Positions 6,652 through 13,655 of a stretch of DNA of 64,000 nucleotides are shown here, in pieces; within the stretch, counting starts at the first letter, position 1; each line of letters begins with the position of its first letter. Made by a program: the position numbers and the translations under genes. The notes under the pieces are model-generated. The model worked only from the letters and a program-made list of their open reading frames with translations, was not told the origin of the DNA and ran no database searches. Origin of the DNA: Podarcis cretensis (taxonomy: Eukaryota); the NCBI GenBank assembly GCA_951804945.1, contig OX638155.1, positions 60,264,001 to 60,328,000 on the forward strand, in the 5' to 3' direction.

Positions 6652-7810
6652 GTTCCTAGTAAAATGGGAGTGCCTGATCACCTCATCTGTCTCCTGAGAA
6701 ATCTCTATGTGGGACAAGAAGCTACAGATAGAACTGGATAAAGAACAACTGTTTGGTTCAAAATTGGGAAAGGAGTACGGCAAGACTGTATATTGTCTCC
6801 CTGCTTATTTAACTTATATGCAGAATTCATCATCCGAAAGGCTGGAATGGATGAATCCCAAGCCAGAATTAAAACTGCAGGAAGAAGTATCAACAACCTC
6901 AGACATGCTGATGGCACAACTTTGATGGCAGAAAGTGAGGAGGAATTAAAAAACCTTTTAATGAGGGTGAAAGAGGAGAGCACACAATAGGGCCTGAAGC
7001 TCAACATCAAAAAAACTAAGATTATGGCTACTGGTCCCATCACCTCCTGGCAAATAGAAGGGAAAAAATGGAGGCAGTGAGAGATTTTACTTTCTTCGGC
7101 TCCATGATCACTGCAGATGGTAACAGCAGTCACGAAATTAAAAGATGCCTGCTTCTTGGGAGAAAAGCAATGACAAACCTAGACAGCATCTTAAAAAGCA
7201 GAGACATCACCTTGCCGGCAAAGGTCCATAAAGTTAAAGCTATGGTTTTCCCAGTAGTGATGTATGGAAGTGAGAGCTGGACTATAAAAAAGGCTGATCA
7301 CTGAAGAATTGATGCTTTTGAATTATGGTATTGGAGGAGGCTCTTGAGAGTCCCATGGACTGCAAGAAAATCAAATTATTATTATTTATTTGATGCTATA
7401 TTGTTTTTAATATTCAGTTGGAAGCCGCCCAGAGTGGCTGGGGAAAACCAGCCAGATGGGTGGGGTATAAATAATAAATTATTATTATTATTATTATTTT
7501 ATCATCCATTCTGAAGGAAATCAGCCCTGAGTGCTCACTGGAAGGACAGATCCTGAAGCTGAGGCTCCAATACTTTGGCCACCTCATGAGAAGAGAAGAC
7601 TCCCTGGAAAAGACCCTGATGTTGGGAGAGATTGAGGGCACAAGGAGAAGGGGACTACAGAGGACGAGATGGTTGGACAGTGTTCTCGAAGCTACCAACA
7701 TGAGTTTGACCAAACTGTGGCAGGCAGTGGAAGACAGGTGTGCCTGGCGTACTCTGGTCCATGGGGTCATGAAGAGTCAGACATGACTAAACGACTAAAC
7801 AACAACAACA
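6652..7810 (+). mobile_element. 5'-truncated, inactivated Bov-B LINE (RTE clade)
   Basis: Frameshifted RT pieces: SPCLFNLYAEFIIRKAG, INNLRHADGTTLMAESEEEL (YADD decayed to HADG), KAMVFPVVMYGSESWTIKKA, MRREDSLEKTLMLG. Stop at 6988-6990. 3' tail GACTAAACGACTAAAC(AAC)n. Confidence 0.95.
7376..7503 (+). mobile_element. L2-type LINE 3' end with (TTA)n tail nested in Bov-B
   Basis: GGAAGCCGCCCAGAGTGGCTGGGGAAAACCAGCCAGATGGG...AAATAATAAATTATTATT interrupts the Bov-B TCAAA|CCT|ATCCATT site, which is uninterrupted in the 63 kb copy. Same family at 43093-43252. Confidence 0.8.
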
Positions 7811-7989
7811 GTAGTAAGATAAAACACACAGTAACCCATAGGCTGCAAGCAGCTCTTGGCTGTTCTCTGTACAGCCTGCCAAGTTCCCGGGGAGCCCCAT
7901 TAACTCCCTCCAGCTCATTGAGCACGAACTGGATGGCAAAGAAAAACAATCACTCTCCATACTGCTAATAAGCATTAGTATGGTGATTT

Positions 7990-8262
7990 AAGCTTCTTGA
8001 TTGTAATAAAACCTCGAAGCAGTTTACAAAACAAATCATTTAAAATATCAACAAAAAGACAGTTAAAAAAGGTATTAAAAAATTCAAACACTGATTATAA
8101 TCAACAATCAGCTAAAAACAGATTAAAACATAAGTACCTTCTGCGTGTCTAGATTAGCTTGCCTAAACAAAACGGTTTTAAGCAGGCACCTGCCATATGT
8201 CTACAGGCGGGGAGTTCCTCTATACAGACAGGGAACCACACTAAAAGATTGATTTCCTACAA
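7990..8262 (-). mobile_element. Old L2-like remnant acting as target of the L1 (continues ~13049-13135)
   Basis: A-rich reversed 3' end followed by GCTTGCCTAAACAAAACGGTTTTAAGCAGGCACC...GGGGAGTTCC...ACCACACTAAAAG, resembling reversed squamate L2 3' coding sequence. Confidence 0.5.
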
Positions 8263-8570
8263 AGATAATTATATAATTCCCGTCTATATTCAACCTCTTT
8301 TCTCTATTCCTCTGAAGAATCCTATTTCTCATTTCTTTATCCTTAAATGTAATCAGGCAATCGCCTGTAAGCTTTCTTACTTTTGTTGTGTTAACGCGCA
8401 TTCTAAATGCGTTCTGTATGTTATTGGCCATTTCCTCCGGTGGAATACCCAGCCATTCCGCAAGCTCCTTTATCAATTTCTCTTTAATGTTTTCATTTTG
8501 TGTCTCTGGCACAGCTCTAAACCTCAGATTAATCTCCCTCTGCCTCAGTTCATTCATCGCTATAACATCC
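8261..8570 (-). pseudogene. Inverted middle part of L1 ORF1 (end of coiled coil plus RRM)
   Basis: Minus translation DVIAMNELRQREINLRFRAVPETQNENIKEKL...GDCLITFKDKEMRNRILQRNREKRLNIDGNYIIIF fits the L1 ORF1p pattern R..NLRx.GxPE and RRM. Confidence 0.9.
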
Positions 8571-8905
8571 TTATCTTTAAAGATGTCCCAATCAGATTAC
8601 TTAAACGAAGAGACTCTTACAAATCTCTGGTGCAGGCATTGAAGAAAAATAAGATCGAGTTTAGATGGGAATTCCCGGAAGGGGTTTCATTTATGTATAG
8701 AGGTAAGAGACATAGGTTATTAAGCCAGGAAGAAACCGGGAAGTTCCTTAGGAAATATAAGGAACTGAGAACGGAAGCAAATGGAACCGGGGATGCAGAG
8801 GGAGGACTACCAGGAGAATCAGGAGTGGGGGAGGAAGAGGAGGGGGGAGAAAGCGGATCAGACGAAGAGGCAGAGGAGGAAAAAGAGGATTCAGGGCACC
8901 TATAA
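8571..8905 (+). pseudogene. L1 ORF1 C-terminal domain plus acidic tail (no start codon in this copy)
   Basis: IFKDVPIRLLKRRDSYKSLVQALKKNKIEFRWEFPEGVSFMYRGKRHRL fits the ORF1p CTD pattern, followed by an E/G/D-rich tail and TAA 44 bp before ORF2. Confidence 0.9.
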
Positions 8906-8949
8906 AGGAAAGGATAACGTAAAGAAAAGTTAAGTGAAAGCTCAGCACT

Positions 8950-11900
8950 ATGGGATTAAAAATTTGGAATTGGAATATTAACGGGATGAACGATAAAAAA
9001 TGGAGAAATAAAATTGAGCAATATCTGAAAAGGAAGAATCTGGACATTATTTGTCTTCAGGAAACGCATGTAGCCAGAAGGCATAGAAAAGTGCTAATTA
9101 ACAAAAAATTGGGAAATGAATTTGAATCCTCAGATAAAGAAAAGAAAAGAGGGGTGGTATTGTATATTAAAAACAAGATGGAAGCTAGAACACTATTCAA
9201 AGATGAAGAGGGGAGGGTGATAGGGGTTAGCATTAACTGGCAAGGAGAAAAACTGGTGGTAGTAGGGGTATATGCCCCAAATGGTAGTAAAACTGAATTC
9301 TTTAAAAAATTAGAAGAGAAGCTATGGGAATATATGGACCAAAAAATAATTCTAATGGGTGACATGAATGGCGTCGTCTCGCTAGAAGCGGATAGACTTA
9401 GGGATGGAGTAAACAAAGAAGGAAAATTACCAAAATCCTTCTTTTCAATGGTAGAGAACTGCAACTTGACGGACATCTGGCGCCTCAGGCATCCATTGGA
9501 TAAACAATTTACTTATCATTCTGAGCCTAACCAATCGCTGTCACGTATAGATCAGATATGGCTTTCAAGTGAATTATGCCCAAGAACTAAATTAATAGAA
9601 ATAAGACCGAAAGTAATTTCGGACCACAGTCCGATAGAGTTGGAATTGGAAAGCTTAGAGACAAGAACTTTTAGATGGAGACTCAAAGACTATCTTTTAG
9701 ATGACCAGAAAATTGTCGAAAATGCAAGGAAAAAACTGTCAGATTACTTTGCGGACAACTGTGATAAAGGAACAAAGATTAATGTAGTATGGGACGCAAG
9801 TAAGGCGGTAATAAGAGGATACTTTATCCAACAGAACGCAATTAAAAACAGGAATAGAGAGAAAAATAAAGAGGAAATTCTAAAACAAATAATGGTAAAC
9901 GAACAAAAACTATCTCAAAAACCTAACTGTCAAAAGGCAAAAGAAAGAATAAAAATGCTACAAGCTCAGTTTGCTACTATAATAAACAGAGAGGTGGAGT
10001 GGAACATCAAAAAACTGAGACAAAAAAATTTTGAATTTTTAAACAAACCAGGTAAATGGCTTGCCTGGCAAATCAAAAAAAGGAAGGAACAAGGTACAAT
10101 AAACAAAATAATAGTGGGGGGGGGGGGAGAAAGAACAGATCCCACAGATCCCAAAGAAATTAGGAGTGAGTTTGTCAACTATTATAGAAGTCTGTATAAG
10201 GATAAAGAGAGAGTTGGCCTAAGGAGAATAGAAAGATTTCTGAAGGATAAAAAGGTGCAGAAAATTTCAACAGAGGATAAGCAAAGATTGAATATACCAA
10301 TTGGAAATGAGGAGATAGAAGAAACAATCAAAGATTTAAAGAGGGGCAAAGCACCAGGTCCTGACAGATTTACTGCTGGTTATTATAAAGAGATGAATTC
10401 TATCTTAGTGGGACCACTGAAGGAGACTATGAATAACATCTTAAAGAAAGGAGAAATCCCTGGGACATGGAAAGAAGCATATATTGCGTTTATCCCTAAA
10501 CAAGATGCAGATCCAACTCAAGTCAAAAATTATAGACCAATTTCATTGCTAAATACAGACTACAAAATATTTGCAGGAATCCTAGCAAGAAGGTTGAAAA
10601 AGTTGTTATCAGAAATCATTCATAAAGATCAGGCGGGATTTCTGCCAGGGCGGCAGATGAGAGACAACACAAGAATCATAATTAATATGTTAGAATATTT
10701 ATCTGTTAGGATTGACAAACAAGTTATTATGATGTTCGTGGATGCCGAGAAGGCATTCGATAATGTGATATGGGACTTTATGCTGAAAATTTTAGAACAT
10801 ATGGATGTGGGCAATGATTTCTTTAATGGGGTAAAAGCAACATATACAGAACAGAAGGCCAAACTGATTATAAATAGCATGGTGACAGAAGAGATAAAGA
10901 TACAGAAGGGTACAAGACAGGGCTGCCCACTCTCCCCGCTACTATTTATAATAGTTTTAGAAGTACTCTTGAATTCAATAAGACAAAATGGAAAAATAAA
11001 TGGAGTATCACTAGGACAGAATGTGTACAAGACTAAAGCTTTTGCTGATGACGTAGTAATAATGACAGAAGAACCAACAACTGCAATAGAAGAAATATTA
11101 AAGGAAATAGAAGAATTTGGAGAAATAGCAGGCTTTAAATTAAACAAGACAAAAACGAAAATGATAGGTAAAAATGTGGACCTAAAAACAATAGAAATCA
11201 TCCAACAGCATTCACAGATAGAGATAGTCAAAAAAGTCAAATACCTTGGTATTTGGTTAACATCTAAAAATATAGACTTATTCAAAAACAACTACGAGCC
11301 GATGTGGAAGGACATAAGGAAAGATCTGGAAAAATGGGGAGGGCTGAAACTGTCATTCTGGGGAAGGATTAATACAATCAAGATGAATGTCTTATCAAGA
11401 CTTATGTTCCTATTCCAAACCATCCCTATAATTAAGGGGAGCCGAATCTTTAAAGACTGGCAAAGAATACTCTCAAGATACATATGGCAGGGCAAAAAAC
11501 CTAGAATTCAGTTCAAATTATTGACAGATATAAAGGAAAGGGGGGGCTTTGCCCTGCCAGATTTAAAGCTGTACTACGAGGCTTCATGCCTTTGCTGGAT
11601 AAAGGATTGGGTAAAGTTGGTGAACACGAAGCTACTCGATTTAGAGGGCTTCGACAATAGATTCGGCTGGCATGCCTATTTATGGAAGAACAAAAGGAAA
11701 GTACATAAGGGATTTGAAAATCATACTTTTAGAGGCCCGTTAATTGAAATATGGGAAAAATACAAAAATCTGTTAGAGCCGAAAACACCACATTGGCTAT
11801 CACCTCTTGAAGTAATGAGCATAAAGGCTATTAATATGAGAAGCAACTGGGCAACATATAGCCAGTTGCTAACCAAGGTTGATGGGAAATGGAAGCTAAA

Positions 11901-12723
11901 ACCGTATGAACAAATAAAGGAGTATGTCTATGACTGGCTACACCATATCCAGGTAAATCAGATGTATAGTAAGGATATTAAAGAAAGAGGCTATGCAGAA
12001 AAAGATTCCAAATTCCAAACAGAGATAATAAATAATGAAGTGAAAATTATATCTAAGATGTATAGGATGCTGCTAGACTGGAACTTAGGCGATGAGGAAG
12101 TCAAATCAGTGATGATCCGCTGGGCAAGGGATGTAGGTCATAGCATACAATTTGAAGACTGGGAAGAGCTTTGGAAGGAGGGGCTAAACTTTACAGCGTG
12201 TATAACGATAAAGGAAAATGTCATGAAGATGTTTTATAGGTGGTATTTAACACCGATGAAATTATCAAAAATGTACAAGATGGATAAAAAGTGTTGGAAA
12301 TGTAAAGATGAGGAGGGCTCCTTCTACCACATGTGGTGGGAGTGTGGAAGAGTGAAGCAGTTCTGGGAGAAAATATATATTGAATTAAAGAAGATTTTAA
12401 AATATACGTTCAGAAAGAAATCAGAAATTTTCCTGCTAGGGATATTAGGGCAAGAGATAAAAAAAGAAGACCGTAGAATAGTATATTATGCAGTGACAGC
12501 AGCAAGGGTAGTATTAGCCCAAAAGTGGAAACAGCAGGAAATACCAACGGTGGAGGAGTGGAGACCTAAGCTGTTGGACTACGCGGAGTTGGATAAATTA
12601 ACAGGAAAAATTAGGTATGCAAGAGACCAAGTGTTCATCAAGGATTGGGGAAAGTACGTGGATTATCTGGAATGTATTAGTGAGGGACAAACAACGCTAA
12701 AGGGATTCAGAGACGCACTGTGA
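8950..12723 (+). CDS. L1 ORF2p: APE endonuclease, reverse transcriptase, CCHC zinc knuckle (1257 aa)
   Basis: EN motifs WNINGMN, ICLQETH, GDMN, SRIDQIW, SDHSP. RT motifs YRPISLLNTDYKIF, DAEKAFD, GTRQGCPLSPLLF, FADD, YLG. C-terminal CWKC-x8-HMWWEC. No stops or frameshifts. Confidence 0.97.
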   Translation: MGLKIWNWNINGMNDKKWRNKIEQYLKRKNLDIICLQETHVARRHRKVLINKKLGNEFESSDKEKKRGVVLYIKNKMEARTLFKDEEGRVIGVSINWQGEKLVVVGVYAPNGSKTEFFKKLEEKLWEYMDQKIILMGDMNGVVSLEADRLRDGVNKEGKLPKSFFSMVENCNLTDIWRLRHPLDKQFTYHSEPNQSLSRIDQIWLSSELCPRTKLIEIRPKVISDHSPIELELESLETRTFRWRLKDYLLDDQKIVENARKKLSDYFADNCDKGTKINVVWDASKAVIRGYFIQQNAIKNRNREKNKEEILKQIMVNEQKLSQKPNCQKAKERIKMLQAQFATIINREVEWNIKKLRQKNFEFLNKPGKWLAWQIKKRKEQGTINKIIVGGGGERTDPTDPKEIRSEFVNYYRSLYKDKERVGLRRIERFLKDKKVQKISTEDKQRLNIPIGNEEIEETIKDLKRGKAPGPDRFTAGYYKEMNSILVGPLKETMNNILKKGEIPGTWKEAYIAFIPKQDADPTQVKNYRPISLLNTDYKIFAGILARRLKKLLSEIIHKDQAGFLPGRQMRDNTRIIINMLEYLSVRIDKQVIMMFVDAEKAFDNVIWDFMLKILEHMDVGNDFFNGVKATYTEQKAKLIINSMVTEEIKIQKGTRQGCPLSPLLFIIVLEVLLNSIRQNGKINGVSLGQNVYKTKAFADDVVIMTEEPTTAIEEILKEIEEFGEIAGFKLNKTKTKMIGKNVDLKTIEIIQQHSQIEIVKKVKYLGIWLTSKNIDLFKNNYEPMWKDIRKDLEKWGGLKLSFWGRINTIKMNVLSRLMFLFQTIPIIKGSRIFKDWQRILSRYIWQGKKPRIQFKLLTDIKERGGFALPDLKLYYEASCLCWIKDWVKLVNTKLLDLEGFDNRFGWHAYLWKNKRKVHKGFENHTFRGPLIEIWEKYKNLLEPKTPHWLSPLEVMSIKAINMRSNWATYSQLLTKVDGKWKLKPYEQIKEYVYDWLHHIQVNQMYSKDIKERGYAEKDSKFQTEIINNEVKIISKMYRMLLDWNLGDEEVKSVMIRWARDVGHSIQFEDWEELWKEGLNFTACITIKENVMKMFYRWYLTPMKLSKMYKMDKKCWKCKDEEGSFYHMWWECGRVKQFWEKIYIELKKILKYTFRKKSEIFLLGILGQEIKKEDRRIVYYAVTAARVVLAQKWKQQEIPTVEEWRPKLLDYAELDKLTGKIRYARDQVFIKDWGKYVDYLECISEGQTTLKGFRDAL

Positions 12724-13283
12724 AAGACTATGAGTTATTGTTTAAAGCAAATAGGAGACAGAGATAGGCACAATGACAATATAAGCAGAGAAACGCGTGA
12801 CTCTGATTATTGCTTCGAATGATTTATGGATAAGCTGAAGGAAGTCTTGAAAGGGATGGCTATGTAATAATGTCAATGAAAAAATTATAAGTTTGTGTAT
12901 TTTTCACTTATCTTTTTTCTGTAACTCTTCTTTTTCTCTATTCTCTGTATTCTGATTTTTTTTTATATATGTGTTAGTTTTTTATTTTCTTTTATGGAAT
13001 CAATCAATAAAAAGAATGATGAAAAAAAAAAAGATTGATTTCCTACAATTGAAGAACAAGCATTATATGGCACCTGTAACAATGCTAGTCCCACAGACTG
13101 GAGTGGGTGAGTGGGAATATATAAAGGAGATCCCAGTGATCAAAAGATTACTGTCCCCATGCTACTAATGCAAAATTGCAGGGTAGTGTACCTCCCTCCA
13201 GAAATCCCAGAACAGTCCATGCCACTGTTTTCATTTTGCTTTTGCCATTGCAGACAGTTATCTTGGCTGCATCAGGATCATTA

Positions 13284-13655
13284 AAGGTAAAGGTAAAGGT
13301 AAAGGTACCCCTGCCCGTACGGGCCAGTCTTGACAGACTCTGGGGTTGTGCGCCCATCTCACTTAAGAGGCCAGGGGCCAGCGCTGTCCGGAGACACTTC
13401 CGGGTCACGTGGCCAGCGTGACATCGCTGCTCTGGCGAGCCAGAGCCGCACACGGAAACGCCGTTTACCTTCCCGCTGGTAAGCGGTCCCTATTTATCTA
13501 CTTGCACCCGGAGGTGCTTTCGAACTGCTAGGTTGGCAGGCGCTGGGACCGAGCAGCGGGAGCGCACCCCGCCGCAGGGATTCGAACCGCCGACCTTTCG
13601 ATCGGCAAGTCCTAGGCACTGAGGCTTTAACCCACAGCGCCACCTGCGTCCCACA
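13284..13655 (-). mobile_element. Sauria SINE (Squam1), full length, young
   Basis: Minus strand starts GGGACGCAGGTGGCGCTGTGGG (A box), has GGTTCGAATCC (B box) and ends in (ACCTTT)n. TSD ATCATTA at 13277-13283 and 13656-13662. CpG-rich. Confidence 0.95.

Follow-up and report, generated by a model that had tools for sequence, protein, structure and literature searches.

A 5'-inverted L1-clade insertion in a lizard genome and its probable origin by twin priming

The window, a 64,000-nucleotide stretch of the Podarcis cretensis genome, contains an insertion of ~4.8 kb: a 5'-truncated L1 with an intact ORF2 and a poly(A) tail, in which a piece of ORF1 lies inverted ahead of the sense-oriented remainder of the element. 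We put the probability that this 5' inversion arose during integration by twin priming, a model reportedly due to Ostertag and Kazazian (2001), at roughly 0.7. The insertion is a well-supported example of a known insertion outcome, and represents a known mechanism in a little-documented host group. Taken alone, the locus is an ordinary dead insertion; the added value lies in the inversion rate of its family and in a lean toward overlaps at the inversion point. The eight natural inversions, found in two L1 families that are related and non-mammalian, show that mammals are not alone in this outcome and supply a first rate for comparison; one of them is polymorphic and has a recoverable empty site.

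The insertion, its junctions, and its empty site

The features of the insertion are collected in the table below. The target site duplication (TSD) occurs only twice in the whole 64-kb window, and the pair encloses 4,766 bp, made up of 308 bp of antisense ORF1 followed by 4,458 bp in sense orientation (8571-13028). A single 20-bp TSD around both pieces and a first-strand synthesis of ~4.45 kb, both part of the original prediction, were therefore borne out; the prediction had ended the feature at 8905, whereas the element runs to 13048. The empty site reads T/AAAAG, a nick site of the L1-endonuclease type.

Features of the inverted L1 insertion (window coordinates)
Feature	Position	Strand	Remarks
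5' TSD copy	8243..8262	+	20/20 identical to 13029-13048
Outer-junction microhomology	8261..8262	+	TSD-terminal AA, complementary to element TT 1984-1985; putative second priming site
Inverted ORF1 piece	8263..8570	-	Element ~1676-1983 of 6,364; 97.5% identity, reversed, to natural copy L056
Sense ORF1 C-terminal part, through stop codon	8571..8905	+	98.5% to several copies
Inner-junction microhomology	8571..8572		2 nt (TT); 6 of 7 nt with 1-nt bulge
Four element bases in two copies	8573..8576	+	Reversed copy at 8263-8266
ORF2, intact, 1,257 aa	8950..12723	+	APE endonuclease, reverse transcriptase, C-terminal CCHC-like motif
3' UTR	12724..13021	+	AATAAA at 13006-13011
Poly(A) tail	13022..13028	+	7 A, merging into 4 A of TSD
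3' TSD copy	13029..13048	+	Perfect match to 5' copy

From its ORF2 domains and similarity the element is classed as an L1-clade LINE, in a sense that takes in both L1 and Tx1. A Pfam search of ORF2 returned PF03372 (E 2e-15) and PF00078 (E 2e-38), and the match to human LINE-1 ORF2p (E 1e-169 over residues 5-881) far exceeded that to R2 (only E 4e-27). For ORF1 of a natural copy, L003, the top three PDB matches were human L1 ORF1p, although weak (E 0.002-0.008), and the Pfam search gave no match to the L1 ORF1 domain. An L1-like unit was confirmed by the poly(A), the variable TSD, the TT/AAAA-like nick site, and the ~6-kb two-ORF layout; full length is 6,364 nt in natural copy L056.

The two ORF1 pieces had been predicted to meet on opposite strands at 8570/8571, and both translations agree: ...RLNIDGNYIII is read from 8263-8570 on the minus strand and IFKDVPIRLLKRR from 8571 on the plus strand, while the last F in ...NYIIIF uses two bases of the TSD. 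The inverted piece corresponds to approximately residues 119-221 of the 330 in ORF1. Flipping it does give a continuous ORF1 at the inversion point, as proposed, but the accompanying claim that nothing is missing does not hold for the copy as a whole, which lacks the initial ~1.67 kb of the element's 6.36 kb, comprising the 5' UTR and ~118 of 330 ORF1 codons. Because the promoter and the ORF1 start are missing, the window copy is predicted to be unable to mobilise itself.

The 8-mer TTATCTTT is located at 8261-8268 (minus strand) and 8571-8578 (plus strand), so its presence in both pieces stands. A full 8-nt duplication does not follow, since two of the shared bases belong to the TSD as its final AA and another two (TT, 8571-8572) fit the upstream breakpoint as well; the unambiguous duplication is ATCT (4 nt), with up to 8 nt possible. 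The proposed microhomology at the TSD end is seen in the shared AA, and a second, inner microhomology of 2 nt had been missed. At a fixed register each has a chance rate of 6-7%, and thus they are weak evidence singly. Measured against L056, the sense piece begins at element position 1978, and the inverted piece extends 309 nt upstream of this start. In copies matching the upstream breakpoint, the sequence is AGATGAAGGA in 22 of 23 and the window's form in none, which places the origin of both junction-repeat arms at the downstream site. A substitution at 8566, private to the window copy (0/29 others), creates a 9-bp hairpin over the inner junction (8564-8585); it may be a plain mutation or the result of templated end processing.

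A search of the lizard's own genome was carried out with 8263-8905 as the query, and 40 of 235 candidates were scored. The two pieces match opposite strands of other loci, where they lie adjacent. Detailed examination of 15 other loci showed the pieces to be adjacent and colinear and to share the 8-mer once in every case. The colinear relatives that had been anticipated thus exist, and a family that is inverted as a whole is ruled out by these loci together with the family survey described below. The nearest relatives are the same for the inverted and the sense pieces (for example, L040 and L056, with 7/308 and 5/333 differences), and such similar distances to the same relatives suggest that both pieces fit one template.

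The locus was also checked in contigs built from public short-read runs, rather than in raw long reads. In X16, X17, and X18, three of four runs from one study, a contig passes from 8242 straight to 13029, and the letters compatible with either side number exactly 20; this is the predicted empty site with a single TSD copy. Loose ends past 8262 continue as the empty allele in X2, which comes from another study and carries another organism label, and in X15. The latter run also gave an exact 58-nt contig over 8233-8290, running from the TSD into antisense ORF1, although its 30 and 28 letters on either side of the junction fall below the 31-letter threshold. The depth of this contig was 50.6, compared with 90.4 for the flank, which is heterozygote-like. 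Since the outer junction and the empty allele occur together in X15, and four runs show the empty site, the insertion is recent and polymorphic. X15 may be the source of the assembly, yet at 7925 the window and the X15 flank contig disagree, and X17, which has the same sample code, shows the empty form only. The contigs of X1 and X19 held colinear family sequence only, with no informative allele. The inner junction was not found among the contig pieces listed; 154 more exist, and a gap in such contigs proves nothing.

5' inversions in two lizard L1 families

Copies were gathered through one 3' DNA search and five pattern searches, one of the latter for a sister family. The window's family comprises 79 loci, window included, of which 28 reach the 5' UTR and 51 do not. 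Five of the 79 carry 5' inversions (6.3%; 95% confidence interval, 2.7-14%): the window copy (308 nt), L032 (75 nt), L050 (55 nt), L080 (280 nt), and L135 (32 nt). Inversion is therefore a regular but minor route in this family. The older sister family was represented by 105 loci out of at least 236 pattern matches (106 were fetched, and L109 was dropped for a missing motif); these come mostly from contigs 1-6, and two pairs resemble segmental duplicates. Three of the 105 are inverted, namely, L116 (1.66 kb), L200 (2.04 kb), and L187 (1.03 kb). Short inversions were probably missed in the sister family, because the references are only 75-95% identical.

Six of the eight inversions have a visible TSD of 14-20 bp, and each time the inverted piece begins either right at the TSD or no more than a few bases from it. 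None was found for L116 or for L200, the 3' end of which is interrupted. At the inversion point, five of the eight show overlaps: 4-8 nt in the window copy, up to 57 in L032, 7-9 in L135 (obtained by direct reading), 4 in L200, and 12-17 in L187. The value is close to zero in L050, which has extra templated bases, and in L080. One copy, L116, has a large deletion (781 nt), and deletions number at most two of eight. Two of the inverted copies have an unusual balance of parts, with ~115 nt of sense sequence under the 280-nt inverted part in L080 (G000:C2:33946000-33953100) and ~70 nt plus the tail under 1,030 nt in L187 (G000:C4:18543600-18550600). As their sense parts are far shorter than their inverted parts, both resemble opposite-strand elements.

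Several other candidates were set aside. Minus-strand matches in L036, L053, L144, L146, L152, L191/192, L203, and L207, with identities of mostly 64-80%, represent distant, separate older elements or repeats. Those in L104, L141, L156, L162, L166, L184, L189, and L202 are matches to inserts in the references or to A/T-rich ends.

Inverted duplicates of 11-14 nt were found at the 5' end in 3 of 41 other truncated copies, compared with 2 of 943 control windows (p 6e-4), in a test for which the threshold was picked post hoc after four thresholds had been viewed, and from which six loci and three further loci with short flanks were left out. In the three copies, L039, L047, and L064, the duplicates sit between the TSD and the truncated element. 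In L044 and L064, bases of the copy's own TSD also seem to recur in reverse.

Human and chimpanzee L1 insertions are inverted in 639 of 2,068 cases (30.9%; PMC2912911, Table 2), a rate well above the 5/79 of the window's family (Fisher p 2.5e-7) and above the 5/51 obtained when only non-full-length copies are counted (p 2e-5). Human tumour insertions show deletions in 66% and duplications in 17% at the inversion point (bioRxiv 2024.08.27.596794). Compared with these figures, the lizard inversions have more overlaps (5/8; binomial p 0.005) and fewer deletions (p 0.02), a comparison that involves eight copies, differing methods, and somatic rather than germline insertions on the human side.

In the open-access literature we found no report of a 5' inversion in a reptile L1, which agrees with the original view that the pathway is less documented outside mammals; such inversions outside mammals may already be described in key papers of the subscription era. 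In the accessible text of the Anolis study PMC5389967, and likewise in that of PMC6007223, twin priming appears in the reference list only, and the accessible text of a second Anolis study (PMC5381506) makes no mention of inversion. According to PMC4245944, inversions were absent among human L1 insertions in chicken DT40 cells, and 5' inversions were seen only for human L1 in human cells, the exception being a single zebrafish Nimb-2 insert in DT40; these chicken-cell assays suggested that 5' inversion requires human L1 together with human host factors. Control by the element or by the host is testable in the lizard, because the family is young and has full-length copies and the window ORF2 is intact.

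Twin priming and competing explanations

Twin priming is described in PMC2912911, PMC4476161, and PMC2837659, and the anatomy of the window copy is that of the twin-primed L1 portrayed in PMC2912911 and bioRxiv 2024.08.27.596794. Applied to the window copy, the published model would start with an endonuclease nick in the bottom strand at TCTTTT/AG, and reverse transcription would begin at the poly(A) and cover ~4.46 kb. With a second cut, 20 nt away on the top strand, the ...AA-3' end released there would pair with UU at element ~1984 and prime synthesis of another cDNA, ~310 nt long and directed at the element's 5' end. The first cDNA would overrun the second priming site by 4-8 nt, and the two cDNA 3' ends would then anneal via TT/AA (6 of 7 nt, bulged), followed by fill-in. 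These steps, taken from the model, would account for every feature of the window copy.

The likeness to twin-primed L1 of human and chimpanzee is close, with a single TSD (10-20 bp) enclosing antisense-then-sense pieces, a poly(A), a TT/AAAA-type site, outer and inner junctions that both show microhomology, and a short duplication at the inversion point. Human twin priming likewise shows microhomology at both junctions and short duplications (PMC2912911; bioRxiv 2024.08.27.596794), and long TSDs accompany inversion (PMC4245944). The lizard copies differ in their non-mammalian host, their lower frequency, and their overlaps in place of deletions. Twin priming is favored by the abutment of all six TSD-bearing inversions on the TSD, by the TSD, poly(A), and nick site of the window copy, by the colinear copies, and by the empty allele; against it stands the dominance of overlaps here, where deletions dominate in human tumours. 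The proposal that this pathway operates in a squamate L1 is thus supported, as a minority route, with the proviso that a second mechanism gives the same sequence.

That mechanism, which we regard as unlikely although it is the strongest competitor, is snap-back with hairpin opening. The first cDNA would reach element ~1670, the RNA would be lost, and the cDNA would fold on itself via TT/AA (bulged 6-nt), leaving a loop of ~308 nt; after second-strand priming, a nick a few bases into the stem would transfer the loop onto the top strand, there to join the TSD by AA/TT. Second priming on RNA would be unnecessary. A simple snap-back copies only existing cDNA, whereas the inverted piece of the window copy reaches 309 nt further upstream than the sense start; it therefore exceeds a simple fold-back, and the hairpin-opening step has to be added. 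With that addition, the inverted piece is expected to end at the sense start with an overlap of zero or more, and seven of the eight inversions fall within 60 nt of it, five of them overlapping, with loop sizes that would span ~0 to 2 kb.

Snap-back is known for R2 insertions (PMC11371274), as are self-annealing and hairpin cleavage for L1-induced ends (bioRxiv 2024.12.14.628481). Junctions of both kinds resemble that of the window copy in that target DNA meets antisense element with a short microhomology at the turn, and they are matched by the fold-backs of L039, L047, and L064 (R2-protein snap-back junctions in PMC11371274; remodelled L1-induced ends in bioRxiv 2024.12.14.628481), the excess of which over controls also favors this mechanism. 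The overlaps, the three fold-backs, and the hairpin created at 8566 fit a DNA-level snap-back at least as well as twin priming, and the two, having an identical product, are inseparable from sequence alone. However, closing loops of 0.3-2 kb by 2-6 nt of pairing would be demanding, and the deletion in L116 is of the classical kind. In addition, L080 and L187 resemble the very short first strands ascribed to twin priming in primates (PMC2837659), and human cells have yielded a split intermediate of twin priming (bioRxiv 2024.12.14.628481).

A broader proposition, which we find more doubtful again, is that squamate L1 5' inversions, ~five times rarer than those of hominids and mostly with overlaps, form a single graded series, with fold-backs of 11 nt at one extreme and 2-kb flips at the other, produced by cDNA snap-back and host hairpin opening and not by second RNA priming. 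If this snap-back origin were true, efficient twin priming would be a mammalian elaboration of an older DNA-level route.

Compared with twin priming, a later flip, dual priming, and misassembly carry little weight even when taken jointly. A later inversion, by which a segment of an ordinary truncated copy was flipped between short inverted repeats after insertion, is very improbable. The segment borders do form an imperfect 6-nt inverted repeat in natural copies, but a reciprocal flip would retain the extra G of the upstream arm, and it is rejected by the junction sequence, which has the downstream form in both arms. The duplication of 4 nt, the position of all six TSD-bearing inversions next to the TSD, and the young, polymorphic state of the insertion also argue against it. 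We give equally little credence to dual priming, in which two DNA ends copy two different L1 RNAs; it was proposed in primates, where it was inseparable from twin priming (PMC2837659), but here the breakpoints coincide to within 8 nt along an element of 6.4 kb, and the pieces have their nearest relatives in common. An assembly error is the least probable explanation of all: the inner junction is absent among the contig pieces listed, but an exact, independent short-read contig runs on from the TSD into antisense ORF1, the two TSD copies are identical, the empty allele agrees, and seven other inversions have different breakpoints.

Other features of the locus and of related copies

Upstream of the insertion site, window positions 7500-7810 contain what we take to be an RTE/BovB-like fragment. 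A young SINE of ~365 bp, presumably Sauria-SINE-like, lies at ~13290-13652, 240 bp downstream of the element. Copies of this SINE, 95-99.7% identical, interrupt 8 of 10 tested inserts in family members (L045, L046, L054, L060, L070, L071, L074, and L096).

Further rearrangements were seen among the relatives. In L048 the 5' end is joined to the interior of ORF2 by one large internal deletion, from ~140 to ~3525, and L069 has the same arrangement, with an internal deletion from ~1055 to ~3113; both joins may have arisen in a splice-like way or by loss of DNA. L057, a rearranged copy with a full-length start, is surrounded by a direct repeat of 71 bp, far above the usual TSD length. At the 3' end, G runs replace or precede the poly(A) in L043, L052, L060, L061, L066, L067, and L082.
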